Origin: Desulfobacterales bacterium
Lineage (GTDB): Bacteria; Desulfobacterota; Desulfobacteria; Desulfobacterales; 4be13
Length of the DNA: 39,334 nt
NCBI GenBank assembly: GCA_029934695.1
Contig: JAOZLU010000003.1
Location: forward strand, 1-39,334
Direction: 5' to 3'
Below are positions 1-39,152 of the stretch, one piece after another (positions within the stretch are counted from its first letter, which is position 1; every line of letters begins with the position of its first letter). The position numbers were made by a program, and so were the translations under genes. Under the pieces are notes generated by a model, which ran no database searches, was not told the origin of the DNA, and worked only from the letters and a program-made list of their open reading frames with translations.

Positions 1-756
1 GATGTGGCGGCCAGGCACTATCAGGACTTCAAGGCAGGCGATCTGACGGAAGTTGAATTTTGCGAAGTTAAGAACAGGGGATGTCCGGGTACCGGCGCCT
101 GCCCTGTCATGGGCAACACAATGGCGGCCCTGGCCGAGGCCCTGAGTATGACCCCATATATGGGGTATGACCCTGCCGGGCAACGCATCGGTTCCCGGAG
201 CGGATTCCCGGTTGCAGCGGATGGCATTCCAGGCCGGACAGCAGGTATCTGTTGCAACATGGGTTCAGGCCCAGCCGGATACTGACATCGGCGGCTTTTG
301 ACAACGCCATCCGGGTGCTGATGGCCATTGGCGGTTCGACCAATGGAGTGTTGCATCTTCAGGCCATTGCCGCGGAACTTGATCTGGAGATCAGACCCGA
401 ACGATTCAATGAATTAAGCCGGTCAACGCCGTTTATCTGTGATGTCTGTCCTTCAGGATCGGGCGGTCATTTCATGGCCGACCTGGACGAAGCCGGTGGC
501 ATTGCGGGAGTGATGAAAGTGCTGCAGCCACTTCTGGACTCAGATGTGTTCACTGTCACGGGACATGCGGCTGTTGCAGCGATTTTTATGGCAACTGTCC
601 GCCAAGGGCTTGCAGGACAGGATCGCTTTAATCACCGATGGCCGTTTTTCAGGTACCGACAAGGGCTGTGCGCCTCGCCGGTTCCCAGAAGCGCAGCGTT
701 TTGCCGGCCGTCTGAGAGGCCATTGCGGCCCGGTATCGCCCTGTGAGCTTCAATGA
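1..756 (+). pseudogene. IlvD/Edd-family dehydratase (dihydroxy-acid / 6-phosphogluconate dehydratase family). 5'-truncated by the window edge, multiply frameshifted and internally deleted.
   Basis: Family motifs are spread over three frames. Frame 1 has 'CPGTGACPVMGNTMAALAEAL'. Frame 2 has 'RLQRMAFQAGQQV'. Frame 3 has 'ILTSAAFDNAIRVLMAIGGSTNGVLHLQAIA...TVTGH'. Frame 1 then resumes with 'ALITDGRFSGTDKG...PEAQR'. About 100 residues expected between 'TVTGH' and 'LITDGRFSG' are missing. Confidence 0.75.
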
Positions 757-837: not shown

Positions 838-910
838 TGGCGGAGAGTCCGGGAGTTGCACCCGGCTGCATGGATTTAGAGTCCATGTGATCCCATCCGA
901 TCCACCCTCC
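838..910 (-). tRNA. pylT: tRNA-Pyl (amber suppressor, anticodon CUA), with encoded CCA end
   Basis: The minus-strand sequence is GGAGGGTGGATCGGATGGGATCACATGGACTCTAAATCCATGCAGCCGGGTGCAACTCCCGGACTCTCCGCCA. It folds as follows: acceptor GGAGGGT/ACTCTCC (7 bp, one G-U), a single linker G, D-stem GATC/GATC, a 6-bp anticodon stem CATGGA/TCCATG, loop CUCUAAA (anticodon CUA), a 3-nt variable loop CAG, T-stem CCGGG/CCCGG with the non-canonical T-loop TGCAACT, discriminator G, then CCA. The 6-bp anticodon stem, 3-nt variable loop, single base between acceptor and D stems and missing T-psi-C consensus are the known tRNA-Pyl hallmarks. From memory, the anticodon arm, variable loop and T-stem closely resemble Methanosarcina tRNA-Pyl. 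Confidence 0.9.
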
Positions 911-1051
911 ACAATACTGTTTTTTTCGCTTTGATAAATTTTAAGAATACCCCCTGAAAATCAGAGGTATTCTTATTGTTGGATAACATTTGATTGTAGT
1001 TTATGATTTTCTGTCCGGCACCTACCGGAAAGAGTTGTCAAAAACAGATAA

Positions 1052-2539
1052 TCAACTGCTTTTTTTATTCATCTCTTCATTTTCTGCTGTAGCATCTTCA
1101 ACAATGCTTCTCATAGCAGATTTTGCTTCTTTGGACAATGGCATTGGTGTATGGTTTGCAAGAATATCAGCTGCTTTTTCAGCAGCACGTTCTGCCATAT
1201 TTTTACCACCCTTACCAAGCCAGCGGTCATAATTTGAACGTTCGATAATGTGGGGTGCAGAAGGCAGTGTTCGCATGTATTTCATGGTATGAGCCTGCAT
1301 TAGATGATCACCACCGGGTCCTACCGCTTTGATCGTATCTATTGCAAGATTCTCATCATTGACAACTATTCCCTGCATCACTTTTCTAACCATTTTAAAA
1401 ATATCATTATCAATTACCAACTGGGCATAACTGAAAATCAGTCCTGAATCCAACATTCCAGCACCGTAAATCAGATTTGAACCCGCACTTGCCGCACATA
1501 AGGCGGTCAGTGTTTTTTCATGACCAGCCTGTGCATCAGGCACTTTTGAATCAGCCTATCCACCGGCAGAAAAACTCGGCAGCATATATTTTTGAGCAAG
1601 TACCGGTGCTGCTGCATTCAACAGACCGCATTCAGGAGATCCCACAGGTGTTGTTGTGAGCTTCAAGTCAAAGCTCAGGGATGAACACCCATAAATTACC
1701 GGTGCACCTTTGCATGTCAGCTGATGCAATACAATGGCACCCAGAATCTCACAATTATGAGTTACCAGAGAGCCTGCAAGGGTTATTGGGCCGGATGCTC
1801 CTGCCATTACCATTGAGATCAGGTTACATGGAACTCCGGCTCTGGCACAGGTCATCACTCCGGTACAGCAGTTCACATCCAAGGTCAGAGGGCTTGTGGG
1901 AGAACAGTTGACAGTTAGAACAGGTCGTTCTCTTAACTCATCTTCTCCTCCAACAATAGCTTGGGCCATTTTGATAATCTTGTCAGCCCGCCATCCATTT
2001 CCCGGTCCATAAACAGTATGTTTTGATGTGTTGGCAAATACCACTTCAGCCTCATAAACAGGAGCAACATTATCTGGTGCATCTCCTGCAGTCAGAGAAC
2101 GTTCACACACATCAACCTCGTCCATAGCATCTGTTAAAAGGGCAGCCTTACCCACATCTTCATTTACTGATGGTCTGACTGTTCCATCAGTTTCCATAAT
2201 ATTGACACCCTGACCAAAAGTACAAAAATTAACCCGTTTGCCTTCCAGAAACACATCATGCTCAGAATCACGTCCGTATTGTACAATTTTCGGCGGTGCT
2301 GAACGGATGCACTCTTCCACAAGATAAGCAGGAAATTTTGCAATCTTTGTTTTACGGTCAATTATTGCACCTCCCCCTTCAAGAATATCTAAGGCTTCGT
2401 CACTTCCGACATAAAGCCCTGTTGTTCTCATAACTTCGAGGGTGGCAAGGTGAATTTTTTCAATCTCATCATCCGCAAAGACATTAAAACCGAAACCACC
2501 GGTTGCGATCATGTCTGAGGCGAGACTTCTTGTCACCAT
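1052..2539 (-). CDS. mttB: Trimethylamine:corrinoid methyltransferase MttB with an in-frame UAG (pyrrolysine) codon. One 495-codon gene, not two ORFs.
   Basis: ORFs 1556..2539 and 1052..1543 are in the same frame (2539 and 1543 are both 1 mod 3). They are separated only by TAG (plus strand 'cta' at 1556-1558) and 4 sense codons. The joined protein reads '...[31 protein letters not shown]...GAGMLDSG...QLVIDNDIF'. This matches the region around Pyl334 of Methanosarcina MttB as I recall it ('AGSOSDAKVPDDQAGHEKT'). There is an AAGGAG RBS before the ATG at 2539, and the true stop is TGA at 1052-1054. Confidence 0.9.
1556..1558 (-). other. UAG recoding site (predicted pyrrolysine, residue 328 of MttB)
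   Basis: The plus strand has 'cta' at 1556-1558, which is TAG on the coding strand. MttB-family sequence continues in frame on both sides. Confidence 0.85.
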
Positions 2540-3156: not shown

Positions 3157-4605
3157 TTATTTTTGCAGTTTTTGCTTATTTATAAAATTCTCAAGCTCTG
3201 ATTCTATATCAGGATCAAGTATAGATTCAGGAGAGGCTGCAAGAATTTGTTCAACTTTTTGAGCTGCCACCTGTCCAACATCTTTTGATCCTGATTCTAT
3301 CCATTTATCATAATTATCCCATGAAGACACATTGGGTCTCCACGTATTTCGGCAGCCTGCCATGGTTGTCGGGTGGTATAAAAAACTTCCTTTTGGACCA
3401 ATATCTTTAATTACTTCCAATCCTAAATCTTCCCCCAATTTTTCAGTGGACTGGTTCATACCTTCCATAAATCTTAATACCCTTGAAATCATCTCCTCAT
3501 CCAGAATAAATTTTTCAAAAGAGTTGGTCATAATAGAATCCATAACTCCCAGGCACTCATTTATAATACTGACACCTCCTGCAATACATTCAAACAAATT
3601 CTGCATGGTCTCAAATCCTGCCTGGGCATCCAGAGTTTTTGCATCAGTAAGACCTGCCATTGTTCTTGTGGGAAGATGGTAGAGTTCCCTTGCAAGCTGA
3701 ATGTTTGCAACATTGATGATATTACTTTCTGGAGAACCGGTTACATATTGACCATTCTGCATATTAGGTACAGCAGATGCAGGACAATAGATAAATGATG
3801 CACCTGGTTGTACAAGCTGGCAAAGAACCAACCCTGCCAGAATCTCGGCATTTTGCAGGACACAGACACCCAAAGGGTTCATTGGAGCAGAAATACCAGC
3901 CAGGGCACAGGACAAAACTGCAGATGGCTGATTAAACCTTGCATAACTGATAATGGTTTCAATGGGAATCGAATCATACACCAGAGGACTTAATGGATTA
4001 ATGGAAGCATATATAGAAGGATGATCCATCAAAAAATCTTTTTTTCCTATTGTGATCTCAAACATATCAAATATGTTCGCTATCTCTCTATGGGTATTTA
4101 CATTTCGTTTTAAAGGTTTATCTGTATGTTTGAGCATTTGAAAGAAAATATCAAGGTATCCATTCTCAGGATCGATACCAGCGGGTTCCACAGGAAAGGC
4201 TCCGCCAATATCACACACTGAACTTGCCTGGGCCAGTTTGTAAAAAACTATCAGGTCCTGCATTGTAGCCGGTCTTCTGCCCTGTTTCAGATCCTGTGCA
4301 AAAACAGCACCATTGGAAGGTTCTACATGGGTATGCTTTTGACCTTCACCCACAAGAATTGATTTTTCTGAATCTATTGCCCATAATTTAAAAGAGGCAG
4401 GAGAAGATTCAATGGCATTTTCCACAAGTTTTCCAGGAATCATCACCCGGCTGCCATCAATTTTTGCTCCATGAGTTTTAAAAATATTCAAAGCCTCGTC
4501 ATGTAAAAACTCAACACCGACCTGCTCAAGAACTTCCAGGCTTGCTTTATGTATTTTGTTTAAATCCTGATTTGTCAGCATGCAGATGAAACTTTCCAGA
4601 GCCAT
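3157..4605 (-). CDS. Non-pyrrolysine MttB-superfamily methyltransferase. Likely a quaternary-amine/betaine:corrinoid methyltransferase of unknown substrate.
   Basis: The 482-aa protein is colinear with the neighbouring MttB ('LNKIHKASLEVLEQVGVEF', 'GSPESN', 'LDAQAGFETM'). Where the paralogue has '[18 protein letters not shown]', this protein has 'TMAG-L-TDAKTLDAQAGFE'. The Pyl position is therefore a Leu codon (ctt, plus strand 3649-3651). Confidence 0.8.
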   Translation of the reverse strand: MALESFICMLTNQDLNKIHKASLEVLEQVGVEFLHDEALNIFKTHGAKIDGSRVMIPGKLVENAIESSPASFKLWAIDSEKSILVGEGQKHTHVEPSNGAVFAQDLKQGRRPATMQDLIVFYKLAQASSVCDIGGAFPVEPAGIDPENGYLDIFFQMLKHTDKPLKRNVNTHREIANIFDMFEITIGKKDFLMDHPSIYASINPLSPLVYDSIPIETIISYARFNQPSAVLSCALAGISAPMNPLGVCVLQNAEILAGLVLCQLVQPGASFIYCPASAVPNMQNGQYVTGSPESNIINVANIQLARELYHLPTRTMAGLTDAKTLDAQAGFETMQNLFECIAGGVSIINECLGVMDSIMTNSFEKFILDEEMISRVLRFMEGMNQSTEKLGEDLGLEVIKDIGPKGSFLYHPTTMAGCRNTWRPNVSSWDNYDKWIESGSKDVGQVAAQKVEQILAASPESILDPDIESELENFINKQKLQK

Positions 4606-4624
4606 ATTTTAATTTCCTTTATAT

Positions 4625-6232
4625 TCAAGAAACTTTTTCCCGTTTTAATAAAAGATTATCCAACCAGTCAGGATCCATCTCTGGTACAGAGGAGAGCAGA
4701 AGTTCTGTATAATCGTGATCTGGTGAATCAAACATATCTTTTTTATTGCCCTGTTCAACAATATTGCCTTTATACATAACAATAACTTCATCAGCGATTG
4801 CCTTTACCGTGGCAAGATCGTGGGTGATAAAAAGATAAGACATGCCAAGCTCAGTCTGAAGCTTTTGCAGCAGTTTTAAAATTTCTTCTGCAACAAGCTG
4901 GTCAAGCGCACTGGTAATTTCATCACATATAATAAGATCAGGTTCTGCTGCCAGGGCTCTGGCAATACAGATCCTCTGTTTTTGACCTCCGGAGAGTTCT
5001 GAAGGATATCTGTCATAATAATGAGAAGGAAGCTCAATCATATCTAACAGTTTATGCACTTTTTTCTTTTTGGCTTTGCCACTGAGACCTGAATAAAATT
5101 CCAAAGGTCTCCCAATAATCCGCCTTATTTTCTGCCTTGGATTCAAGGCAACATCAGGCATCTGATAAATCATCTGTAATCGTCTTAAAGTGTTAAGGCT
5201 TCGCTGTCTGACATCAGGTGAAACTGACTTGCTGTCAAATAAAACCTTGCCTTTGTTTGGAGGTAAAAGACCTGTGATAACCCGGGCAAGGGTTGTTTTT
5301 CCAGAACCCGATTCCCCCACTACAGCCACATTCTGTCCACGGAAAATTTTAAAATCAATATCTTCCACAATATTCTGACCCGGATAATAGCCAGCATCAA
5401 CTCCTTGAATTTCTAATACAACTTCTTTATGAGATTTGGTGTTATCACATTTCTGCCGCCTTACATTTAAAAGATCCTTGGTGTACTGCTCTTTTGGATT
5501 TTCCAGCATCTCTCTTGTTTCCCCATCTTCCACAAGCCTGCCATGGCGCAAGACCATAACCCTGTCAGCCACCTGGGACACCACTGCCAGGTCATGAGTA
5601 ATATAGAGGGCAGCAGTGTTGTTTATTTTGATAGCATCCCGGATGGCGGCAAGCACTTCAATCTGGGTAGTCACATCAAGTGCTGTTGTTGGTTCATCAA
5701 AGACCACAATATCCGGGTCACACCCGAGTGCCATTGCAATCATTGCACGCTGGAGCTGTCCTCCTGACACCTGGTGTGGGTAGCGATAGCCAATTGAATC
5801 AGGAAATGGAAGATTCAGACGTTTGTATAATTTTTCTGCCTTCTGTTTTGCCTGTTTGAATGTCATGTGCCCATGGCGAACAGGTGTTTCAGCAAATTGC
5901 TGAACCAGACGGTGGGCAGGGTTGAAAGATGCAGCAGCACTCTGGGCAACATAAGCGATATTGGAACCTCTCAGCTGTGTCAGCTCCTTTTTTGTTGCAT
6001 CAACAAGCTCTTTGCCATCAAACATAACCGAACCTTCGGTAATATCACATCCATCACGGGTATATCCCATTGCTGCAAGACCAAGTGTACTTTTCCCTGC
6101 TCCAGACTCTCCAATAATGCCGAGCACTTCGCCCCTGTTTAACTGAAGATCTATATCCTCCAATAAAACAGTTGTGTTGCCATCCCAATATCCTTTAATT
6201 GTCAGGTTGTCTATCTTGAGTATATTGTCCAT
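4625..6232 (-). CDS. ABC transporter ATP-binding protein with two fused ATPase domains (DppD/DppF-like)
   Basis: There are two Walker A motifs ([18 protein letters not shown]), two ABC signatures ([16 protein letters not shown]) and two Walker B motifs (VVFDEPT, IICDEIT). Confidence 0.9.
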
Positions 6233-7094: not shown

Positions 7095-8051
7095 CTATTC
7101 AGAAATGTGTCGTAATTTTGGGTTAGTAATAATTGCAAGGATATCTGCTGTTAAATTAAGCAGAATATATGTTGCAGCAAAGATAAGACCGCTTGCCTGA
7201 ACAACCGGCAGATCCCTTTTTGCAACAGAATCCACGAGAAGCTGTCCAAGTCCGGGATATACAAAGACAACTTCGACAACGACCACTCCGACAATGAGCC
7301 ATGCAAGATCCATAACTACAACATTAATAATGGGGGATAAAACATTGGGAATGGCATGCTTTATAATAATAGGCCATTCGCTTACCCCTTTAAGTTTTGC
7401 CATCTCAATATATGGACTGGTAAGCACCCCTATAATGGCTGCTCTTGTCATCCTCATCATGTGTGCCATTACTACGAGAAGGAGAGTAAAACAGGGCAGT
7501 ATAATGATATTGATTTTGGTCCAAAATGGCATGCTCGCCTGAATTGTTGCAACACTTGGCAAAAGACCAAGTTTGATTGAAAAAATATAGATAAGAATAT
7601 ACCCCACAAAGAATTCAGGAAACGAAATAGCTGCAAGACTTCCCATGGATAAAATTCTGTCCGGCCATCGTTCACGAAAAAGAGCTGCTATCATGCCGAA
7701 AATTATTGCCAGAGGTACTGCAACCAATGCAGCAGAAAAAGCAAGAAAAAGAGTATTGGAAAACCGCCATCCTATGACTTCATTGACAGGACGTTTATTG
7801 GATAGTGAAGTGCCAAGGTCTCCCTGGACAAAATTACCAAGCCATGACAGATATCGGGTATGCGGTGGAAGATCAAGTTTCAGCTCTTTTCTAAGTGCTG
7901 CCAGATTTTCCGGTGTAGCCTGCTGTCCGAGAATTGCTGTTGCAGGATCTCCCGGCAAAGCCTCGATGCTCAAAAAAATCAGGATGGATACCAGAAAAAC
8001 TGTGACTATTCCTGCTGCGAGTCGCTTTAAAACCATTCCTTTTATAGACAT
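7095..8051 (-). CDS. ABC transporter permease (DppB/OppB-like)
   Basis: The 318-aa protein is polytopic. It has 'YIEMAKLKGVSEWPIIIKHAIPNVLSPII', typical of DppB/OppB. The stop codon is TAG (plus strand 'cta' at 7095-7097). Confidence 0.85.
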   Translation of the reverse strand: MSIKGMVLKRLAAGIVTVFLVSILIFLSIEALPGDPATAILGQQATPENLAALRKELKLDLPPHTRYLSWLGNFVQGDLGTSLSNKRPVNEVIGWRFSNTLFLAFSAALVAVPLAIIFGMIAALFRERWPDRILSMGSLAAISFPEFFVGYILIYIFSIKLGLLPSVATIQASMPFWTKINIIILPCFTLLLVVMAHMMRMTRAAIIGVLTSPYIEMAKLKGVSEWPIIIKHAIPNVLSPIINVVVMDLAWLIVGVVVVEVVFVYPGLGQLLVDSVAKRDLPVVQASGLIFAATYILLNLTADILAIITNPKLRHISE

Positions 8052-10017: not shown

Positions 10018-10033
10018 TGCAAAACATATGCCA
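10018..10033 (-). promoter_or_regulatory. Sigma-54 (-24/-12) promoter driving the ABC-transporter/mttB operon
   Basis: The minus strand reads TGGCATatgttTTGCA, with GG and GC spaced exactly as in the consensus TGGCAC-N5-TTGCA. It lies about 70 nt upstream of the ATG at 9946. An NtrC-type activator is encoded immediately upstream. Confidence 0.7.
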
Positions 10034-10336: not shown

Positions 10337-11719
10337 TTATCCGCACTCCATCATTTTTTTGAACTGATATCGAAATGTGTGATGTTTAAGATTCAACAGT
10401 TTTGCAGCCCGGGTTTCATTTCCTTTTGCAAGTTTCATTGCCTGGGAAAAATAAAATTTATCCATGTAATTTCTAACCTGGTTAAGATCTATTCCAGTGG
10501 GAGGCAGTGGTGTAAATGTAGTTGAATCTTCCATGATCTTTCCATGTTGAATTTTATTAAGTCCCAAATCATCAGGCGTTAATAATTCACCTGAGGCTAT
10601 CAGCACAGCTCTCTCCATCATGTTTTTCAACTCTCTGACATTTCCACTCCAAGTGTACAGTTTTAGCAGGTTCAATGCTTCATCACTGATACCTGTTAAA
10701 GATCTGCCAAATTTTTCATTAAACGTATGCAAAAAATATTTTGCAAGAAGTATGGTGTCCTCATGTCTGTCATTTAAAGATGGAACATTTATTTTAATGA
10801 CACTCAGGCGATAAAAAAGATCTTTTCTGAATGATCCTTTAAAAATCATTTTCTCAAGTTCCTTGTTTGTTGCTGATACTATTCGGGTTTTTATTTTATG
10901 TCGTATCGTACTGCCAACTTTATAAAATTCTCCCTCCTCAATGAACCTGAGAAGCTTTGCCTGAGCATCCAGATTCAGGTCTCCAACTTCATCTAAGAAA
11001 AGCGTACCTTTGTCAGCCATTTCAATGAGTCCTTTTTTTCCGGATTGACTTGCCCCGCTGAAAGCCCCTTTTTCATATCCGAAAAGCTCACTTTCAAGCA
11101 GTTCTGTTGGAATGGCAGCACAGTTTATAGTGACAAAGGGCCCTGCAAAATTTGGACTCCTATGATGAATTGTGCTTGCAATCAACTCTTTTCCCGTTCC
11201 TGTATCACCAAGGATAAGTATAGGTGTATCAGGGCTTTTAGCTACCATTTCCAAGTATTCCATAATATCGTGGATTGCCTTGCTTTCACCGATAAAACAC
11301 GGCAGATTTTCCCTGATCTGCTTTTCCTGAAGTTTTTTTATCTCTTTTCTAAGCCGTATGGTCTCAAGTGCATTGGCAATGGTTACCTCCAGTCCTTCCA
11401 TGTGAATGGGCTTGATGATATAATCAAAAGCACCATTTTTCATACACTCAATGACAGAGCCTATATCTTCATATGCTGTAATCATGATGACAAGAAGATT
11501 ATCACTGATTTGTTTAAACTTTTTCAATGCCTCAATTCCATTCATACCCGGCAGTCCTATATCCAGGAGAACAAGATCCGGCTGCTGAACCTTTATCTTT
11601 TCAAGTGCCTTTTCTGCTGATTCAAATGTATATAGAGAGTAATCATCTTCAAGGTCAGAAGAGATACCTTCCCGGATGGTTTTTTCATCATCTACTATAA
11701 AAAGGGTGTATTCCACCAT
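10337..11719 (-). CDS. Sigma-54-dependent response regulator (NtrC family: REC + AAA+ + Fis-type HTH)
   Basis: The REC domain has 'FIVDDEKT...DLVLLDIGLPGMNG'. The AAA+ domain has Walker A 'GDTGTGKE', the GAFTGA-type loop 'EKGAFSGA' and 'ESELFGYEKGAF'. A C-terminal HTH is present. I place the start at the ATG at 11717-11719 (MVEYTLFIV), preceded by GAGGAG. The longer ORF reaching 11872 reads through the MITE. Confidence 0.85.
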   Translation of the reverse strand: MVEYTLFIVDDEKTIREGISSDLEDDYSLYTFESAEKALEKIKVQQPDLVLLDIGLPGMNGIEALKKFKQISDNLLVIMITAYEDIGSVIECMKNGAFDYIIKPIHMEGLEVTIANALETIRLRKEIKKLQEKQIRENLPCFIGESKAIHDIMEYLEMVAKSPDTPILILGDTGTGKELIASTIHHRSPNFAGPFVTINCAAIPTELLESELFGYEKGAFSGASQSGKKGLIEMADKGTLFLDEVGDLNLDAQAKLLRFIEEGEFYKVGSTIRHKIKTRIVSATNKELEKMIFKGSFRKDLFYRLSVIKINVPSLNDRHEDTILLAKYFLHTFNEKFGRSLTGISDEALNLLKLYTWSGNVRELKNMMERAVLIASGELLTPDDLGLNKIQHGKIMEDSTTFTPLPPTGIDLNQVRNYMDKFYFSQAMKLAKGNETRAAKLLNLKHHTFRYQFKKMMECG

Positions 11720-11750
11720 TATCTTACTCCTCTCTTTGCATCTGTATTTT

Positions 11751-11887
11751 CTGATTATAACGAATGCGGGAGCATGATTCGGGACATTCCCGCTCGTTGC
11801 GGGGCGGGATCCCTGCGACTGTGCGTTGCGAGGCGGAAGCCCTCGCAACGAGTGGACTTGAAGGCTCCCCACATCCGTTATAATCAG
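11751..11887. mobile_element. Complete MITE-like element (~137 bp) with terminal inverted repeats, between the kinase and regulator genes
   Basis: The left end 'ctgattataacgaatgc' (11751-11767) and the right end 'acatccgttataatcag' (11870-11887) are inverted repeats. The interior carries 'ccctgcgactgtgcg' and 'ggcggaagccctcgcaacgagtgg'. Confidence 0.7.
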
Positions 11888-11898
11888 TATATTTAATT

Positions 11899-14433
11899 CT
11901 AAGATTGTATAAAAACAGGCATCTCAATTATAAATTTTGTACCGCCAAGTTCTGATGAAACTACTTTAAGTGTTCCTTTATGATCAGTAATAATTCTATG
12001 GCAAAGGCTCAACCCTATACCTGTACTGTTTTCTTTGGTTGTAAAAAAAGGTTCAAAAATTTTCTGCCTTAAATCTCTTGGAATACCTGGTCCATTATCA
12101 TCAATACTAAGAACAAGTTTATCATGCATGGCATTTGACGAAACCTCAATAACTCTGTTTCCTTTTTTGACCAAAAGAGCATCTGCTGCATTATTAATAA
12201 GATTTAAGATAACCTCCTCAATAAGATTTGGTTCTGCATGACAGTGAGGCAGATTTTTATCCAGTTTCTGCCTGATGGAAATCTTCTTTTTGTGAAGGGT
12301 GGTATTTGACAGATCAACTGCTTCGAGTATTGGAACATTTATATCAATTAAATCAAATTTTGGTTCTGCCGGTTTCGCAAAATTCATCACTCTTTTAATG
12401 ACAGATTCCATTTTTTGTGAAGCAGATCGTATGGCATCAATAGATGGTTTGATTTTATGAATTTTTTCCGGGTTTTCAAAACTTTTTTCTATTGTTCTGA
12501 TATAAATATTAATGCCAGACAGAGGATTTCTGATTTCATGGGCTATCCCGGCTGATACATGCCCTAAAGATGCCATTTTATCCTGAACTGCCAGCAGACG
12601 TTCCAACTCTTTTGCCCTTGTCATATCTATGGTAATCAGCAAAAGAGCTTTTTTATCCTGATGGTCAATGGGTCTGGTAATACAGTTTACCCATTTCATA
12701 GTTACCGGCTCATTTTGATCAGATGATTTAAAAAACCTGAAATCCATTTCCGACTGCACCAAAGCTCCTTTTACAATCTGCTCATACAGTTGTTTTGCCT
12801 TTTTCAAATCATCCTGATGGATATGTTTATAGGCTGGAGAGTCAAACAACCCCAAATTCCCCATGAGTTCAGACTGTCGTGAATTTTTATAGACAACCGT
12901 ACCATCCTGGATAATCGCAATACCGTTGGGGGAATTTTCCACAAGGTCCCTGAATCTTTTTTCACTTTTTTGTATGGCACGCTCATTTTTTTTTCTTTGA
13001 ATCAATCTCCACATGCCCTGAGTCAGCAGACTCAGCTGTCTTAAATCTGAAGAGTCATAATCGCTTTTTTTATTCCCCATGCCTGCAACAGCCACAATTT
13101 TATCTCCACTGAAAACAGGAACACTTATGTATCTAAAATTTTTTTTATGTTCTGTTGGAGCACCCTTTTTATATAAATTCAAGTATTCATACTTGTTTGA
13201 AATTGAGGGTTTACCTTTACGGATAGCATCTCCCCAAAATCCTTCGGTATCAGCGCCGAATCCAGTAGCAAGATTATGTTCAATCTTTTTCTTTATCGAA
13301 AAAGTGCTGCCTGGATTAACCTCATACATGATTCCTTTTTGATCTTCAAAAGCCAGATATCCAAAGTTGCTTTTTGTCAGACGAATCATCTGCTGAAAGG
13401 CAAAATCAATGGTTTCCCGGATAGAGGCATGGGTACGTTCGTTCAATTCCAGTAATGCCTCAAGGCGTATCTCATTAAATCTGAGTTCCTCGGTTCTCTG
13501 CATCACCTGATTTTTCAACATTCTGTTCCAGATCAGAATTGAACTGGTGATAAAAAGAACAGTCAGGGCAATTGCTGAAACAATATACCAGAATATTTGG
13601 GTTTGGTAGAATCTTATGGTTTCAAGCCGAATCCATTTGGCATGTATCTCTTTGTGCTCTTTTTCACTGATATTTGCCAGGGCTTTTTCAATAATTTCAG
13701 CCAAAACAGGCCAGTCTTTTCTTATCCCCAAACCAAGATTGAGTTCAAAACCAGTATCACCAGCCAGTCGAAGATTTGTAATTTTTTCAGTTTCAATGAC
13801 ATACAGGGCATTGGGCACTTCAATGATCATGGCATCAAGTTCACCAAAAGAGACTTTATGCATACCCTCATTGCCGTTTAACACATCTGTGAGGGTAAGT
13901 TCAGGATAATTATCTCTTATAAATTTACCCACTGCATACTCCTTTGGCACACCTATTTTCATCCCCTGCATCTGATCGAGGGTAAAGGTTTTTGTTCTGG
14001 ATTTTTCTACAATTATTGTTGTTTTAATATCCAGATAAGGGGTTGACCAGTTCATAAACAGTTTTCTTGCAGGGGTAGCCTGAGCTGCGCTAATGATGTC
14101 AATTTTCCTCTCTTTAGCAAGAGAAAGTATTTTTTCCCAGCTTTTAATCCTGACAATTTTAAATTTAAACTCAAATTTTTTTTCTATCAAACGAATATAA
14201 TCAGCAACCATACCCTGATACACTCCGTTTTTATCAAAAAACTCCATGGGTTCCCAGTCAGGAGCAGGTGCCAACCTGATTTTTCCGTCATGAACATTCA
14301 ACCATTTCCGTTCATCCCTGGTTAAGATATCGTTTCCGGCAAAACCAGTAGTTGAATAAAAAAGAATAGCTAACCAAAAAAGAACATCATGAATAACAGC
14401 TCGTAAAATTAAATTTATCCTTTGGTTGTCCAT
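11899..14433 (-). CDS. Sensor histidine kinase: periplasmic family-3 solute-binding domain, TM, GAF-like, PAS, HisKA, HATPase
   Basis: An N-terminal TM helix precedes an SBP_bac_3-like region ('IRLAPAPDWEPMEFFDKNGVYQGMVADY'). A second TM helix is 'IFWYIVSAIALTVLFITSSILIW'. Kinase motifs are the H-box 'GIAHEIRNPL', N-box 'LINNAADAL', G1 'DDNGPGIP' and G2 'GIGLSLC'. The stop codon is TAG. Confidence 0.85.
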   Translation of the reverse strand: MDNQRINLILRAVIHDVLFWLAILFYSTTGFAGNDILTRDERKWLNVHDGKIRLAPAPDWEPMEFFDKNGVYQGMVADYIRLIEKKFEFKFKIVRIKSWEKILSLAKERKIDIISAAQATPARKLFMNWSTPYLDIKTTIIVEKSRTKTFTLDQMQGMKIGVPKEYAVGKFIRDNYPELTLTDVLNGNEGMHKVSFGELDAMIIEVPNALYVIETEKITNLRLAGDTGFELNLGLGIRKDWPVLAEIIEKALANISEKEHKEIHAKWIRLETIRFYQTQIFWYIVSAIALTVLFITSSILIWNRMLKNQVMQRTEELRFNEIRLEALLELNERTHASIRETIDFAFQQMIRLTKSNFGYLAFEDQKGIMYEVNPGSTFSIKKKIEHNLATGFGADTEGFWGDAIRKGKPSISNKYEYLNLYKKGAPTEHKKNFRYISVPVFSGDKIVAVAGMGNKKSDYDSSDLRQLSLLTQGMWRLIQRKKNERAIQKSEKRFRDLVENSPNGIAIIQDGTVVYKNSRQSELMGNLGLFDSPAYKHIHQDDLKKAKQLYEQIVKGALVQSEMDFRFFKSSDQNEPVTMKWVNCITRPIDHQDKKALLLITIDMTRAKELERLLAVQDKMASLGHVSAGIAHEIRNPLSGINIYIRTIEKSFENPEKIHKIKPSIDAIRSASQKMESVIKRVMNFAKPAEPKFDLIDINVPILEAVDLSNTTLHKKKISIRQKLDKNLPHCHAEPNLIEEVILNLINNAADALLVKKGNRVIEVSSNAMHDKLVLSIDDNGPGIPRDLRQKIFEPFFTTKENSTGIGLSLCHRIITDHKGTLKVVSSELGGTKFIIEMPVFIQS

Positions 14434-14951: not shown

Positions 14952-15584
14952 ATGGCGGATTTTAATGCAATGCAGGAGTCTTTAGTTAGCTGTGACAAGG
15001 ATAAACTTGTGGGTCTGGTAAATGCAGCATTGGCAGAAGACATAAGTGCATCAGATATTTTAAACCAGGGATTGATCGCTGGTATGGATATTGTTGGTGA
15101 AAAAATGGAAAACGGTGACATGTTTATTCCCGAAGTACTTATGGCAGCCAAAGCAATGGGTGAATGTGTGATTATTTTAAAGCCACTGCTCGGTGAGGAT
15201 GAGTCTTCAAAAGGTGGTAATGTAGTTATTGGAACTGTCAAAGGTGATCTTCATGACATAGGTAAAAACCTTGTTGCAATGATGATGGAGAGTGCCGGTA
15301 TGACAGTTCATAATGTGGGAGTTGATATTGCACCTGAAGATTTTGTTACTCAGATAAAAGAAAAAAATGCCCGGATTGTCTGCCTGTCAGCTCTTTTGAC
15401 CACTACAATGCCCATGATGAAACAGACTGTTGATGCCATAGTTGAAGCAGGTTTGAGAGATCAGGTTAAAGTTATGGTGGGTGGTGCGCCTGTAACCCAG
15501 GCATTTGCCGATGAGATCGGAGCTGACGGCTTTGCAGCGGATGCAGGTTCTGCTGCCAGATTTGCTAAAACTCTTTTAGCATAA
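14952..15584 (+). CDS. Methyltransferase cognate corrinoid (cobalamin-binding) protein, MttC/MtbC-like
   Basis: The 210-aa protein has an N-terminal helical cap (B12-binding_2) and a B12-binding domain. The latter has the DxHxxG motif 'GDLHDIGKNLV' and the 'SALLTTTM' and 'VMVGGAP' motifs. A GGGAG RBS is present. Confidence 0.85.
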   Translation: MADFNAMQESLVSCDKDKLVGLVNAALAEDISASDILNQGLIAGMDIVGEKMENGDMFIPEVLMAAKAMGECVIILKPLLGEDESSKGGNVVIGTVKGDLHDIGKNLVAMMMESAGMTVHNVGVDIAPEDFVTQIKEKNARIVCLSALLTTTMPMMKQTVDAIVEAGLRDQVKVMVGGAPVTQAFADEIGADGFAADAGSAARFAKTLLA

Positions 15585-15739
15585 CATTGTAAGACCGAAA
15601 ATCAGCCAAGTTGCCGGTTTTCCAAACAAATTCAGCTAATTTTCCTGAAAAATCCCATTGAACGGAACCAGTGCCAAAAATTGAGCGAAGCGGCTTTTTG
15701 CACCACACACCTCCGAGATGACAAAGATTTTATTTAAAG

Positions 15740-15839
15740 CTCTATAACGGATTCAGGGACCCCTTAAACTTAAACTTAAACTTGGACTTGGACCAAGTCC
15801 AAGTTTACGGGCATGTTCATAGGCATCCGTTATAATCAG
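15740..15839. mobile_element. MITE-like element copy (~100 bp) with a degenerate left TIR
   Basis: The left end is 'ctataacggattc' (15742-) and the right end is 'gcatccgttataatcag' (15823-15839). The interior 'aagtccaagtttacgggcatgttcatagg' is the reverse complement of the interior of the copy at 17169-17255. It also contains the palindrome cttggacttgg/ccaagtccaag. Confidence 0.7.
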
Positions 15840-15857: not shown

Positions 15858-17168
15858 ATGAAGTTTATAAAAAAAGCTGCAAAAACAGCAGGGTCAAATT
15901 CAGATAAAACCCGTAGTATAGTACAGAGTATCCTTTCGGATATTGAGGCTAATGGTGAAAAGGAAATTTATGCCCTTGCCAAAAAGTTTGATAAGTGGGA
16001 AGGCGATTTTATTTTAAGCCATGAAAAAAAGAAGCGTTTAATTGATAAAGTACCTGAAGATATAAAAAAAGATATCAGGTTTGCCCATGAACAGATATAT
16101 GGATTTGCAAAAGCTCAAAAAGGGAGCTTAAAAGAGTTTGAAAAAGAAACCATTCCAGGTGTTCGTCTTGGGCAAAAAATTGTTCCCATGGAGGTTGCCG
16201 GATGTTATATTCCTGGTGGGCGCTTTGCCCATGCCTGTTCCGCTCTCATGAGCGTTGCAACAGCAAAGGCTGCAGGTGTAAAAACTGTTATTGCCTGCTC
16301 TCCTCCTCGTGGAGACAGTATTGCTCCTGCTGTTGTGTATGCTTTGGAAGTCGCAGGTGCAGATATTATTCTTGAGATGGGAGGTGTTCAGGCAATTGCC
16401 ACCATGGCATTTGGTCTTTTCACAGGAAAACCAGCCAATATCCTTGCAGGTCCCGGCAACTCCTATGTTGCTGAAGCAAAAAGTATTCTCTCTTCTGCAG
16501 GACAATGCACAATTGATGTGTTTGCAGGGCCAACGGAATCTGCCATTATCGCAGATAAAACTGCTGATTATATGACTATTGCGATTGATCTTGTTTCCCA
16601 GGCAGAGCACGGGATTGATTCGCCTGTATGGCTGTTCACAGATTCAAAAGAAGTGGGAGAAAAAGTCCTTGAAGTGATACCAAAAATTATTGCTGATATG
16701 CCTGATCCTGATGTTCCTGCATCCTCATGGCGTGATTATGGAGAAATAATTCTTTGTAAGGATAGAGAAGAGATTTGTAAAGTAAATGACCAGTATGCTG
16801 CTGAACATGTGCAGGTGATGGCACGGGATATTGAGTGGTGGAAAGAAAACCTCACCTCCTATGGTTCCCTGTTTCTTGGTGAAGGAAGTACAGTTCCCCA
16901 CGGCGACAAGTGTTCCGGCACTAATCATATTCTTCCTACCAAAAAAGCAGGGTATTATTCAGGTGGGCTAAATGTCTTTAAGTTCCTCAAAATTTATACA
17001 TATCAAGAGATCAGCAAAGAAGCCAACATGGTCATCAGCGGGGCTGCATCTCGATTATCACGGGTTGAAGGAATGGAAGGTCATGCAAGAGCCTGTGATT
17101 TCAGATTAAGAAAATATTTCCCGAATCAGGCGTGGAAATTCAATGTCTATGAACAGACTGAATATTAA
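15858..17168 (+). CDS. Histidinol-dehydrogenase-family NAD-dependent 4-electron dehydrogenase (HisD/HpsN-like), substrate unknown
   Basis: HisD catalytic and Zn motifs are conserved: 'SQAEHG', 'YAAEHVQV', 'GDKCSGTNHILPT' and 'EGMEGHARA'. The protein is 436 aa. An AGGAG RBS is present. Confidence 0.8.
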   Translation: MKFIKKAAKTAGSNSDKTRSIVQSILSDIEANGEKEIYALAKKFDKWEGDFILSHEKKKRLIDKVPEDIKKDIRFAHEQIYGFAKAQKGSLKEFEKETIPGVRLGQKIVPMEVAGCYIPGGRFAHACSALMSVATAKAAGVKTVIACSPPRGDSIAPAVVYALEVAGADIILEMGGVQAIATMAFGLFTGKPANILAGPGNSYVAEAKSILSSAGQCTIDVFAGPTESAIIADKTADYMTIAIDLVSQAEHGIDSPVWLFTDSKEVGEKVLEVIPKIIADMPDPDVPASSWRDYGEIILCKDREEICKVNDQYAAEHVQVMARDIEWWKENLTSYGSLFLGEGSTVPHGDKCSGTNHILPTKKAGYYSGGLNVFKFLKIYTYQEISKEANMVISGAASRLSRVEGMEGHARACDFRLRKYFPNQAWKFNVYEQTEY

Positions 17169-17255
17169 CTGATTATAACGGATGCGGGGAGCCCTATGAA
17201 CATGCCCGTAAACTTGGACTTTAAGTTCAAGGGATCCCGTATCCGTTATAATCAG
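17169..17255. mobile_element. MITE-like element copy (87 bp) with intact TIRs, in opposite orientation to the 15740-15839 copy
   Basis: The ends are 'ctgattataacggatgc' (17169-17185) and 'atccgttataatcag' (17241-17255). The interior is 'ccctatgaacatgcccgtaaacttggactt'. The element starts immediately after the HisD-like stop codon. Confidence 0.75.
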
Positions 17256-17300
17256 AATATTTGATTCTGGAGTATTAAACATGAATCAGGAGTGAATCTC

Positions 17301-18512
17301 ATGACCGATATAGATCAAAAAAAATTCACAAAAAATTTTACTTTACAGGAACCTATTGGAAAACAGGGGATTGAAAAAGCCCTCTCAATATTGAATTCCG
17401 GTAAGATTCACAGATATAATGTGGATGAGGGAGAAAAAGGCGAGACTGCTCTGCTCGAAGAGGAATTTGCAGCATATATGGGTAAAAAATATTGCCTTGC
17501 CTGTGCATCATGTGGAAGTGCTATGTATCTCGCACTTAAAAGTGCCGGCGTAAAATCTGGAGATAAGGTTTTGTGTAATGCCTATACTCTTGCTCCTGTT
17601 CCTGGAGCAATTGAAAATTCAGGAGCTGACATTGAACTTGTTGATATAGTAGATGATTACACCATTGATCTGGATGACCTTGAAAGAAAAGCCAAAAAAG
17701 AGAAGAATGCTAAATGGCTTATGCTGTCCCACATGCGCGGGCATATCACCAATATGGAAAGAGTTGTTGAAATATGCAATGCTGATAATCTGGTCCTGAT
17801 AGAAGATTGTGCCCACACAATGGGGGCATCATGGGATGGCAAAAGATCAGGTTCGTTTGGAAAAGTCAGCTGTTTCAGCACCCAGACATATAAACATATG
17901 AATTCAGGAGAAGGAGGACTTCTTGTTACAGATGATCCTGATCTCATTGCGCGTGCAATTATCTATTCAGGATCATATATGCTCTATGAACGGCATACTG
18001 CACGACCTCCAATGGATGTTTTTGAAAATATTAACACAATGGTGCCTAACTATTCCTGCCGAATGGATAATCTTAGAGCAGCCATATTAAGACCTCAGTT
18101 GGAAAATCTGAATACCCAGTGTGAATGTTGGAACAGACGTTACAGATTTTTGGAGCAGGGTTTAATTCAAATCAAGGGTATTACCTGTCCGAAAAGAGAT
18201 CCTCGGGAAAACTATGTCGGCAGCTCCATCCAATTTTCCCTAATTGATCAAGATGAAACAACCATCAAAAAATTTCTTATCAAATGCATGGATCAGGGTG
18301 TTGAACTCAAATGGTTTGGCAGCGAAAAACCTGTTGGCTTTACAAGTGTTTATTCAAGCTGGGAGTATTTTAATAATCTGCCTTATCTTGCCAATACCAA
18401 GCGCATTCTTGCCACAATGTGCGATATGCGCATCCCTCTGACATTTGACATAAAGGACTGCAAACTGATTTTACAAATCATCAAAGATGTTGCTCAAACC
18501 ATATTGAAATAA
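17301..18512 (+). CDS. PLP-dependent aminotransferase of the DegT/DnrJ/EryC1/StrS family
   Basis: 'LIEDCAHTMGA' and 'SCFSTQTYKHMNSGEGGLLVTDD' (putative PLP lysine) are typical of the family. I place the start at the ATG at 17301, 9 nt after AGGAG. The track's 17292 start is a GTG inside the RBS spacer. Confidence 0.7.
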   Translation: MTDIDQKKFTKNFTLQEPIGKQGIEKALSILNSGKIHRYNVDEGEKGETALLEEEFAAYMGKKYCLACASCGSAMYLALKSAGVKSGDKVLCNAYTLAPVPGAIENSGADIELVDIVDDYTIDLDDLERKAKKEKNAKWLMLSHMRGHITNMERVVEICNADNLVLIEDCAHTMGASWDGKRSGSFGKVSCFSTQTYKHMNSGEGGLLVTDDPDLIARAIIYSGSYMLYERHTARPPMDVFENINTMVPNYSCRMDNLRAAILRPQLENLNTQCECWNRRYRFLEQGLIQIKGITCPKRDPRENYVGSSIQFSLIDQDETTIKKFLIKCMDQGVELKWFGSEKPVGFTSVYSSWEYFNNLPYLANTKRILATMCDMRIPLTFDIKDCKLILQIIKDVAQTILK

Positions 18513-18521
18513 GGAAATATT

Positions 18522-18681
18522 ATGTCTGAAACAGTAATCACAACCGATAGGGCCCCTTCTGCCAGAGTCAATAAAATTTACGCTCAATATTTTAAAAAAC
18601 CGTTTCCTGCCAAGTGCCTTTCAGGTGGCTGCATTGCCATTAGGTGCTGATGTGGAAGTGAAAGCTGTTTTTCAATTATAA
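18522..18681 (+). pseudogene. RidA/YjgF (enamine/imine deaminase) remnant with a ~70-codon internal deletion and a frameshift
   Basis: The N-terminus 'MSETVITTDRAPSA' (compare E. coli RidA 'MSKTIATENAPAA') is joined directly to 'RVNKIYAQYFKKPFPAKC' (compare 'TVNATYEAFF..FPARSC'). The +2 frame then gives 'AALPLGADVEVKAVFQL*' (compare 'ARLPKDVKIEIEAIA'). The total is 160 nt, against about 385 nt for an intact gene. Confidence 0.7.
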
Positions 18682-18707
18682 CCATATATATAGAAAGGAT
18701 AATCCTA

Positions 18708-19724
18708 ATGAATTTCACAAAATTTCCAAGAAGAAAATATCTTCAGGGCTCAACCCCTGTTGAATCTATGCCTGCATTGAGCAAAGTGCTTGGTACAGAT
18801 GTTAATTTGTATGTCAAACGAGATGACCTGCTGCCTGGATCTGCCGGTGGTAATAAAACCCGCAAACTTGAGTTCTGTATTGCTGATGCACTGGAAAAAG
18901 GTGCTGACACCATAATTACCTGTGGTGCTGTTCAGTCAAATCATGCAAGATTAACAGCTTCATGGTCTGCTAAAGAAGGTCTTGAGTGTCATCTGCTCCT
19001 TGAAGAACGTGTTAAGGGGTCTTATAAAAAGAAAGCCAGCGGCAACAATTTCCTTTTTGAGCTTCTTGGTGTAAAAAGTATAGAAGTTGTTAAAGGCGGC
19101 TCTGACATGATGGCTCAAATGGAGAAAAAAGCTGATGATCTGACAGCAGCAGGAAAAACACCTTATATAATCCCAGGTGGCGCCTCCAACCCGATTGGTG
19201 CCACAGGATATGCTGTATGTGCAGAAGAGACCATGAATCAGCTAAATGAAATGCGGCTTGATATAGACCATATTATTGTTCCATCAGGCTCTGCTGGTAC
19301 CCATGCAGGGATGGTGGCAGGTATGACAGGTGTCAGTGGTAATATTCCCATCAGCGGTGTAAATGTGTCAAGGCCCAAAGAAGAGCAGGAAGAGATTGTT
19401 TACAAGCTGGCTGAAGAAACTGCCCAAAGGCTTGAAGTAAAAATGGGTATCAATCGTGAAGATATTGTCTGCTTTGATCAGTATGTAGGACCAGGTTACT
19501 CTCTTCCAACAGATTCCATGGTTGAAGCTGTAAAACTTTTTGCCGGGACTGAGGCTATTCTTCTAGACCCTGTATATTCAGGCAAAGCTGCTGCTGGTCT
19601 TATTGATCTTGTTCGGAAAGGACACTTTCCAAAAGGTTCCAACGTGTTATTTCTCCATACTGGCGGTTCTCCTGCACTGTATGCTTATATGGATACTTTC
19701 AGACTGGATATTAATGAGCACTGA
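18708..19724 (+). CDS. PLP-dependent lyase of the D-cysteine desulfhydrase / ACC deaminase / cysteate sulfo-lyase (DcyD/CuyA) family
   Basis: The family motif is 'KRDDLLPGSAGGNKTRKLEF' (PLP lysine). 'CGAVQSNHARLTA' and 'LHTGGSPAL' are also present. The protein is 338 aa. Confidence 0.8.
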   Translation: MNFTKFPRRKYLQGSTPVESMPALSKVLGTDVNLYVKRDDLLPGSAGGNKTRKLEFCIADALEKGADTIITCGAVQSNHARLTASWSAKEGLECHLLLEERVKGSYKKKASGNNFLFELLGVKSIEVVKGGSDMMAQMEKKADDLTAAGKTPYIIPGGASNPIGATGYAVCAEETMNQLNEMRLDIDHIIVPSGSAGTHAGMVAGMTGVSGNIPISGVNVSRPKEEQEEIVYKLAEETAQRLEVKMGINREDIVCFDQYVGPGYSLPTDSMVEAVKLFAGTEAILLDPVYSGKAAAGLIDLVRKGHFPKGSNVLFLHTGGSPALYAYMDTFRLDINEH

Positions 19725-19844
19725 CACAGGGAGCTGTTTTTCAGCAGTTCCCTGCTTACCAGCAATATAACGAATTGAAATACAGGGAACTACACACTGA
19801 TAATGATCTTGAAATTAAATGTTTTAATCAGGAATTAAAAAAAT

Positions 19845-20552
19845 ATGAGCAAAAATAAAGAAAAAACAGTTGGAATCATTGGAGGAATGGGACCGGAAGC
19901 TACTATTGATCTGATGCAGCGTATTATTCTCCTGACACCAGTATTGGATGATATTGATCATATCAGATGCATTGTGGATAATAATCCCAAGGTTCCATCA
20001 AGAATAAGGGCTATTATTGATGGGGATGGAGAGAATCCAGGTCCTTGCATGGCAGGTATGGGTAAAAAGCTTGAAACCCATGGAGCAGACTTTCTTGTGA
20101 TTGCCTGCAATACTGCTCATTATTATTATGATGTGGTGCAAAAAGCTGTAAATATTCCTGTCATTAATATGATATATCTTGTATCCAAACATGCAAAAAT
20201 AAATTTTCCTGAGCAGAACACAATTGGCATGTTAGCCTCCCCTGCAGTTGCGATGACTGAGCTTTATGCTAAAAAGCTCAATAAACTTGGTATTAGAGAT
20301 ATCTGGCCGGATTCTGATTATCAGGACACTCTTTTTAATGTAATCAAAGAGGTCAAAAAAGGAAACACCAGTTTAACTGTTCATAATGATTTTAAAAAAG
20401 TATGTGAACATCTTTCAGATAAAGGTGTAAAAGCAGCCATTATTGCCTGCACCGAACTTGGTATCCTTAATAGGCCATCTTATTTAAATTTCCTTGATGC
20501 TGCCCAAATCCTAGCTGCTGAAATAGTGCAGATTGCTAAGAGTGAAAATTGA
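19845..20552 (+). CDS. Asp/Glu/hydantoin-family amino-acid racemase (aspartate-racemase-like)
   Basis: 'GIIGGMGPEAT' is present, along with both catalytic-cysteine motifs, 'VIACNTAH' and 'IIACTELG'. The protein is 235 aa. Confidence 0.8.
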   Translation: MSKNKEKTVGIIGGMGPEATIDLMQRIILLTPVLDDIDHIRCIVDNNPKVPSRIRAIIDGDGENPGPCMAGMGKKLETHGADFLVIACNTAHYYYDVVQKAVNIPVINMIYLVSKHAKINFPEQNTIGMLASPAVAMTELYAKKLNKLGIRDIWPDSDYQDTLFNVIKEVKKGNTSLTVHNDFKKVCEHLSDKGVKAAIIACTELGILNRPSYLNFLDAAQILAAEIVQIAKSEN

Positions 20553-21274: not shown

Positions 21275-21398
21275 TCAGCAATGCTTCCTTGCTCATTTTC
21301 TGGGAGAGCATTCGCTGCTTTCCAGCCAGATTGATGACAGTAGCCATTTCCTCGTTCGTGGCACCCGTCGAAGCCGGGGCCAGTTCCTCTCCGAAAAA
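21220..21398 (-). pseudogene. Short remnant of a PilJ/NarX-type N-terminal sensor domain
   Basis: The translation is 'FFGEELAPASTGATNEEMATVINLAGKQRMLSQKMSKEALL...'. The motif 'INLAGKQRMLSQKMSKE' matches the INxAGRQRMLSQR box of PilJ/NarX/NIT-type sensor N-termini. The frame then runs out of frame into the DUF2807 fragment and stops. Confidence 0.45.
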
Positions 21399-21411
21399 TC
21401 ATGCTTCGGCC

Positions 21412-31548: not shown

Positions 31549-31620
31549 AATTCTTTACTCCTTTCTGTTGTGATGGTTTATTTGATGGCTCATTACCGGA
31601 ATGACTGTTTGCAGGAATCT

Positions 31621-31645
31621 CGTGACGAGGCTCTGCCTCGTCACG
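31621..31645. repeat. GC-rich hairpin between the channel gene and the A2M gene
   Basis: 'cgtgacgaggc tct gcctcgtcacg' forms an 11-bp perfect stem. No U-tract follows on the coding strand. Confidence 0.6.
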
Positions 31646-31654
31646 GCGGGTGAG

Positions 31655-33856: not shown

Positions 33857-33877
33857 AATGACGAATTAATGATGAAT

Positions 33878-33947
33878 TGATTATAACGGATTTAGAGGAG
33901 GCCACGGTCCCTGAGCTTGCCGGTCCCTGAGCTTGTCGAAGGGGGTG
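33878..33947. repeat. Intergenic repeat patch: one MITE-type end plus a tandem 'ggtccctgagcttg' motif
   Basis: 'ttgattataacggattt' (33878-33894) resembles the MITE TIR. It is followed by 'ggtccctgagcttgccggtccctgagcttgtcgaaggg'. Confidence 0.5.
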
Positions 33948-36143: not shown

Positions 36144-36208
36144 AATGATGAATGATACCCGATTCAGGAAAATGTACATTCCGGGTATTTTATTTTTTTT
36201 GAAATCCC

Positions 36209-39058: not shown

Positions 39059-39152
39059 AATTTTGGGGTTGTCAGAGTATTGAATAAGCACGTTATTTTT
39101 TCTCCGGACTCTCCGGATTCTGTCGGACGGAGTTTGCCCTGCCGGACCCTGC

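Follow-up and report, generated by a model that had tools for sequence, protein, structure and literature searches.

A pyrrolysine tRNA gene directly downstream of a UAG-containing trimethylamine methyltransferase gene in a Desulfobacterales bacterium

A gene for an ordinary bacterial tRNA-Pyl (pylT) is present on the minus strand at positions 838-910 of the window, i.e., the whole stretch of 39,334 nucleotides that was analysed here, from a Desulfobacterales bacterium of the sediment sulfate-reducer type. It is placed behind the gene for a trimethylamine:corrinoid methyltransferase (mttB) bearing an in-frame TAG, and a public contig by which the window is continued carries the genes for a split pyrrolysyl-tRNA synthetase (PylRS) and for pyrrolysine (Pyl) biosynthesis. 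The best explanation, which is considered very probable from the sequences compared, is that this tRNA is functional, is charged with Pyl and reads the UAG of mttB. The features at this end of the window were as follows:

838-910, minus strand: pylT, tRNA-Pyl gene with anticodon CUA, 73 nt, CCA encoded (ARAGORN, covariance model, cloverleaf as minimum-free-energy (MFE) fold, 10 assemblies)
942-975, minus strand: 13-bp hairpin in the mttB-pylT spacer (fold of 911-1055 on the minus strand, z -4.5)
1052-2539, minus strand: mttB, Pyl-type trimethylamine:corrinoid methyltransferase (TIGR02369), with an in-frame TAG at 1556-1558 (residue 328)
1459-1558, minus strand: PYLIS-type element beginning at the mttB UAG (Rfam RF02510, PYLIS_3)

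The pylT gene (sequence, GGAGGGUGGAUCGGAUGGGAUCACAUGGACUCUAAAUCCAUGCAGCCGGGUGCAACUCCCGGACUCUCCGCCA) was detected by ARAGORN as the sole tRNA of the 39 kb window (tRNA-Pyl, anticodon cta). Forty-four pylT genes of other genomes, the source organism being excluded, supplied a covariance model (R1) that gave a single match against the window, at 838-910 on the minus strand (92.6 bits, E 1.6e-21). The coordinates at which a tRNA-Pyl had been placed in the initial annotation were returned both by ARAGORN and by this independent model. In the alignment of the 44 sequences, 99.3% of the cells were paired (35-58% in slid-partner controls), and 10 of the 22 pairs were changed on both sides. The MFE and centroid folds of the gene were both the cloverleaf (-30 kcal/mol, z -2.0). 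The identical 73-mer was contained in 10 independent public assemblies (10/10 retrieved contigs), and the homology of pylT genes from other genomes to the window began and ended exactly at the tRNA borders. No match to the exact 73-mer was obtained in the metagenome contig set; JGI contigs do carry it. With Rfam at the gathering threshold, no tRNA family was assigned at 838-910, and among the matches listed for 600-1200 at E <= 10 the general tRNA family was absent, only sub-threshold noise being found there. This absence fits the earlier remark that tRNA finders often miss the gene, as regards general tRNA models; ARAGORN, a standard tool, detects it.

All 22 stem pairs were intact, and each idiosyncratic structural feature that had been ascribed to the gene was recognized in its sequence and fold. 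The acceptor stem (GGAGGGU/ACUCUCC; 7 bp, one G-U) was separated by a single base (G8) from the D stem (GAUC/GAUC; 4 bp, 6-nt loop), which was joined by one nucleotide to an anticodon stem of 6 bp (CAUGGA/UCCAUG) with the 7-nt anticodon loop CUCUAAA. A variable loop of 3 nt (CAG) and a T stem of 5 bp (CCGGG/CCCGG) followed, and the T loop, UGCAACU, had G in place of the usual psi-55 and was without T-psi-C. The discriminator was G, succeeded by an encoded CCA. In Herring et al. 2007 (PMC1851642), G73, G1:C72, U54-A58 and purine 57 are given as the recognition elements of bacterial PylRS, and all of them could be read in this pylT, with G1-C72, G73 and the T-loop bases U54 G55 C56 A57 A58.

The mttB gene is encoded on the same strand and its stop codon occupies 1052-1054, which places a spacer of 141 nt between the two genes; the position directly downstream of mttB first assigned to pylT was thereby upheld. 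When read through its TAG, mttB encoded 495 aa and scored 645 bits against NCBIfam TIGR02369 (cut-off 525). Residue 334 of M. barkeri MttB was taken by us to be the pyrrolysine position. The TAG at 1556-1558 aligned with this residue of the M. barkeri MttB chain (PDB 7XCM), so that an in-frame UAG at the conserved Pyl position was combined with a full-length match above cut-off. It was also the sole TAG in the window flanked on both sides by long reading frames, and the PYLIS_3 match beginning at it reached 82.4 bits (gathering score, 38; E 1.6e-15). In 10/10 public contigs examined, the gene was called as two pieces of 327 and 163 aa, and the N-terminal product was found on at least 21 public contigs. 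Of the 21 confident genes in the whole window, 7 end in TAG; there is no avoidance of this codon in the organism, though it would be decoded as Pyl in mttB.

The hairpin at 942-975 was located 31 nt upstream of the tRNA 5' end, and its core (967-951) was flagged by a terminator scan. In the nearest relative, metagenome contig L091, both arms have changes and the hairpin is retained; it appears to be a terminator-like or processing structure. No promoter was indicated by a sigma-70 scan of the minus strand from mttB to pylT.

Upstream of mttB, an MttB-superfamily gene without UAG (here mttB2), an Opp/Dpp-type ABC transporter, a sigma-54 two-component pair and a divergent corrinoid protein gene were encountered in this order. 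Two further features were assigned in this region:

10019-10033, minus strand: sigma-54-like promoter TGGCAT-N5-TTGC (pattern match, 1 mismatch)
14952-15584, plus strand: methyltransferase-cognate corrinoid protein, MtbC/MttC-like (NCBIfam MtbC/MtgC/pyl_corrinoid matches)

The corrinoid protein is likely to be the methyl acceptor for MttB. The mttB2 gene (3157-4605, minus strand) directly follows the Opp/Dpp-type ABC transporter, had no in-frame UAG and scored 312 bits, below the cut-off of the trimethylamine type; the methyltransferase it encodes probably acts on a quaternary amine distinct from trimethylamine. The sigma-54-like site was 73 nt upstream of the transporter/mttB gene string. Over the whole window, matches to the sigma-54 pattern were not above chance in number, and the site is made plausible solely by its position beside the sigma-54 activator gene (10337-11872), which is weak evidence.

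Several other elements of the window were recorded. The spacer between mttB2 and mttB (617 nt) contained dispersed repeats of 41-62 nt, 85-93% identical, at 2685-2923, with many short hairpins (e.g., GGATTTTTTGAATCC and GGGATTGCCAAATCCC); no tandem array was reported for this spacer by TRF. An ORF of 88 aa at 2728-2994 lay on these repeats and had no family match; although public contigs list it as a gene, it probably is not one. At 15858-20552 on the plus strand, genes for a histidinol-dehydrogenase-family enzyme, a DegT-type aminotransferase, a CuyA D-cysteate sulfo-lyase (526 bits) and a CuyB cysteate racemase (256 bits) formed a row that looks, by these family assignments, like a sulfonate (cysteate) degradation cluster adjoining the methylamine genes. 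The minus strand at 25978-39091 encoded a bacterial alpha-2-macroglobulin of 1,856 aa, two paralogues (733 and 743 aa) in which a periplasmic-binding domain is combined with C-terminal stretches that are hydrophobic and membrane-like, and a Peripla_BP_6 + SBP_bac_5 fusion of 960 aa.

None of pylS, pylB, pylC and pylD was found within the 39 kb window, because its border lies about 1 kb away from them. Ten public contigs were retrieved, of which the longest (GCA_029935795.1, contig JAPOGT010000030.1, 62 kb; hereafter L001) showed no mismatch to the window except one 5-base indel near position 100. L001 runs beyond window position 1, through the rest of an ilvD remnant, into a pylSc-pylB-pylC-pylD-pylSn set starting 1,096 nt downstream of pylT. 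All five Pyl protein genes are linked to pylT in L001, each scoring above its NCBIfam cut-off:

pylSc, 297 bits (cut-off 178)
pylB, 465 bits (cut-off 348)
pylC, 404 bits (cut-off 248)
pylD, 274 bits (cut-off 150)
pylSn, 123 bits (cut-off 51)

These proteins already bear the names of Pyl enzymes at NCBI, under "Desulfobacterales bacterium" or "Deltaproteobacteria bacterium". The junction from pylT to pylSc in L001 was also contained in contigs L003 and L010, and no further pylT was found near the cassette. The initial annotation had taken the tRNA to imply the use of Pyl, had advised a search for pylS and pylBCD, and had regarded their absence as a sign of a relic; the genes were found, and with the Pyl-type mttB and its in-frame TAG they bear the implication out. 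pylT was not immediately upstream of the first synthetase gene, an opposite-strand pseudogene fragment of the ilvD family being interposed:

1-746, plus strand: decayed ilvD/edd-family dehydratase fragment between pylT and pylSc (three-frame translation, NCBIfam ilvD, composition)

Its NCBIfam ilvD match was limited to profile positions 230-342, and its GC content was 58% (adjacent DNA, about 41%); at least two frameshifts were present and both ends were missing. In L001 the fragment continues (11794-12560) up to pylSc. Among the public assemblies it varied by the 5-nt indel near position 100 and by larger deletions or rearrangements in L004 and L008, and the adjacent tRNA was invariant. The assemblies fork exactly at the first base of the window (L001:12539). 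L001, L003 and L010 lead from there to pylSc; in L002 a further 40 or so codons of ilvD give way to AT-rich DNA of unrelated sequence, with no pylSc; L005 ends at window position 1, and L006 and L007 end within about 30 bases of it. The fork represents either strain variation or a second copy, and the cassette may not be adjacent to pylT in some strains or in such a second copy.

Repeats were shared between the window and L001. Intergenic elements of 48-74 nt, 88-90% identical, were found at 15635-15743 of the window (the spacer between the corrinoid protein gene and hisD) and, after pylSn, at L001:17260-17307 and 17499-17571. A direct repeat of 318 bp (99.7% identical), corresponding to the 3' end of a substrate-binding-protein gene, was present at 21383-21700 of the window and at L001:17918-18235. 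Its two copies flank about 27 kb comprising the cysteate genes, the corrinoid protein gene, the two-component system, the transporter, both mttB genes, pylT and the pyl cassette, and L001 terminates 300 nt past the second copy.

Relatives of PylSc were searched for in species-representative genomes. At least 210 such genomes contained them (best match, 66% identical), mostly from Desulfobacterales, with some from Aminicenantes, Omnitrophota, Sedimentisphaerales and others. Reports of Pyl use by marine Deltaproteobacteria have appeared since 2007 (PMC1976440; PMC8318568), and the initial description of Pyl use as rare outside methanogens and a few Firmicutes and Deltaproteobacteria could not be maintained. 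Two cluster layouts were distinguished among the relatives, pylT-pylSc-B-C-D-Sn (first) and pylT-pylSn-(corrinoid)-B-C-D-pylSc (second). The closest sequences and identities for the individual components were as follows:

PylSc: closest in the first-layout loci L011, L012, L013, L015 and L030, 61-66%
PylSn: closest in the same five loci, up to 81%
PylB, PylC and PylD: closest in the same five loci; second-layout proteins, 37-52%
pylT: second-layout clusters, 93-99%; the five first-layout loci with the closest PylSc, 75-89%
Corrinoid protein (14952-15584): corrinoid proteins inside second-layout clusters, 76-85%
MttB: second-layout loci L026, L101 and L091, 84%, 86% and 89%, respectively (amino acids)

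The bacterial pylT of Desulfitobacterium hafniense (Herring et al. 2007, PMC1851642) resembles the present one in its CUA anticodon, compact cloverleaf, G73, G1:C72, U54-A58 and purine 57. A split PylSc and PylSn, the order pylSc-B-C-D-Sn and a UAG target in mttB are likewise common to both systems. In clusters of the D. hafniense type, and in most of the relatives examined in which pylT is found by ARAGORN, pylT lies 40-300 nt upstream of pylSc or the first synthetase gene, whereas here 1,096 nt with the ilvD pseudogene fragment intervene between pylT and pylSc and pylT directly follows mttB. Clusters of the second layout occur in Desulfobacteraceae, namely Desulfotignum, Desulfobacula and metagenome-assembled genomes (MAGs) (L020, L027, L061, L063, L071, L087, L089 and L090), and in the metagenome contigs L091 and L101. 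The tRNA and corrinoid protein identities tabulated above for this layout refer to these clusters, and the 93-99% identity of pylT extends to genes of other genera. The arrangement mttB-hairpin-pylT is shared by L091 and L101, where MttB is 86-89% identical. In the second-layout clusters, however, pylT is followed by pylSn, in place of the ilvD remnant and pylSc-first cassette seen here, and their cassette proteins are only 37-67% identical to the present ones. The delta-1 symbiont of Olavius algarvensis (Zhang & Gladyshev 2007, PMC1976440) likewise has a deltaproteobacterial pylT, pylSn, pylSc, pylBCD and a Pyl-containing mttB. "Olavius sp. associated proteobacterium Delta 1" (L074) is a different organism from the present one, with a PylSc 53% identical and a tRNA (74 nt) 81% identical.

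L091 and L101 have the order mttB-pylT-pylSn, with pylT differing at 1 and 4 positions, respectively, and their nucleotide homology to the window extended through mttB and the spacer and ended at the 3' terminus of the tRNA (window position 838). The locus looks like a mosaic, because mttB-pylT on the one hand and the synthetase and biosynthesis cassette on the other are closest to different layouts and the homology stops at the tRNA 3' end. The mttB-pylT block would have descended from a cluster of the order mttB-pylT-pylSn-...-pylSc, and a pylSc-B-C-D-Sn cassette from a different lineage would then have taken the place of everything 3' of pylT, the dead ilvD fragment being debris at the junction. 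Integrase-type insertion at the tRNA was considered by seeking an att-like repeat of the tRNA 3' end in L001 and the window, and received no support, only chance matches of up to 12 nt being obtained.

The discriminator base bears on whether such a cassette could serve this tRNA. Among the 44 bacterial pylT genes the base was G in 37, A in 6 and U in 1 (L011), and several genes were without an encoded CCA. The tRNAs of the first-layout lineage differ from the present pylT at 8-18 positions, and 4 of the 5 loci with the closest PylSc have discriminator A or U in their own tRNA. The fifth, L015, uses G73, and cross-lineage compatibility is plausible for this reason; on these comparisons the present PylSc and PylSn are likely to be compatible with this G73 tRNA across lineages. 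A more specific proposal, advanced tentatively and rated slightly below an even chance, is that the locus is a natural cross-lineage hybrid, in which a tRNA-Pyl that came, together with mttB and its corrinoid protein, from a cluster of the second layout would be served by the cassette of another lineage, with the ilvD fragment as scar and with substrate-dependent suppression of UAG.

Some related loci were noted for their tRNA content. When pylT was compared by BLAST with related loci in which ARAGORN had reported no tRNA, only a fragment of 27 nt from the 3' end was obtained, at the edge of L065, and L026 had no pylT between mttB and pylSn. L027, a Desulfobacteraceae MAG, carried two pylT copies with 3 differences, 2.8 kb apart (4609-4681 and 7435-7507), one ahead of corrinoid and pylB genes and the other ahead of pylSn.

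A break of synteny that coincides exactly with the 3' end of the tRNA, beside the decayed ilvD remnant, also suits a different account, in which pylT is a relic or orphan suppressor that has lost its original pylSn-...-pylSc partners and is charged poorly or not at all by the present cassette. This account, which also draws on the different discriminator base carried by the tRNAs of most of the nearest PylSc relatives and on the L002 continuation without pylSc, is judged very unlikely. The tRNA was identical in 10 assemblies, whereas the ilvD remnant beside it has strain-specific indels and deletions, and pylT is for this reason regarded as being under constraint. None of the 22 stem pairs is disrupted, and the tRNA keeps G73 and G1:C72; mttB retains its in-frame TAG with intact flanking frames, a codon that would abolish the enzyme if no working suppressor existed; and the cassette has no other pylT nearby. 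Because pylSc-B-C-D-Sn are present beside it and mttB is of the Pyl type with TAG, pylT is not taken for a relic. A general amber suppressor, carrying a standard amino acid from another synthetase and unrelated to pyrrolysine, would be compatible with the CUA anticodon taken by itself. The architecture of the tRNA (anticodon stem of 6 bp, variable loop of 3 nt, single base between acceptor and D stems, no T-psi-C), its 92.6 bits against a model made of pylT only, and the presence of mttB and pyl genes on its flanks make that possibility highly improbable. That the cloverleaf arose by chance in an intergenic region, as the modest folding z-score (-2.0) might allow, has a negligible probability and is refuted by the covariance match (E 1.6e-21, the sole one in 39 kb), by the 93-99% identity to pylT of other genera and by homology that ends at the gene borders.

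For the favoured reading, that of a functional pylT serving mttB, the following sequence of events is proposed. By analogy with the known Pyl pathway, two lysines would be converted to pyrrolysine by PylB, PylC and PylD, and the tRNA would be charged with it by the split synthetase, composed of PylSc (catalytic) and PylSn (tRNA-binding). In the neighbouring mttB, the one in-frame UAG would be decoded by the charged tRNA, giving a full-length MttB with Pyl at residue 328, which would work with the corrinoid protein encoded at 14952-15584. pylT is situated at the end of a same-strand string consisting of the ABC transporter, the mttB paralogue and mttB, behind a conserved hairpin; on account of this position, the supply of the tRNA may be at least partly coupled to expression of the transporter/mttB string, and, as a conjecture, read-through from mttB followed by processing of the transcript would provide at least part of the tRNA. 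Such coupling would limit read-through of UAG elsewhere, and unrestrained suppression would be costly because TAG terminates 7 of the 21 genes of the window.

The assignment of pylT is correct and helps annotation; it is not novel in kind, the gene belonging to a known family, being detected by a standard tool and occurring in an order in which Pyl use is widespread and published. The mosaic origin and the unusual separation of pylT and pylSc by 1.1 kb are minor evolutionary curiosities. A mosaic junction at the tRNA 3' end would show that pyl cassettes are exchanged, which is of modest evolutionary value, and a cross-lineage combination of PylRS and tRNA-Pyl would be of some interest for the engineering of orthogonal pairs; if the pair is active, it would constitute a natural test of PylRS/tRNA-Pyl cross-compatibility between bacterial classes. 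For the organism itself, recognition of pylT and of the UAG restores a single MttB of 495 residues from two called fragments and marks the bacterium as a user of trimethylamine, in which, if the proposed coupling is true, the suppression of UAG would depend on substrate through the placing of pylT as the last gene of the mttB string.
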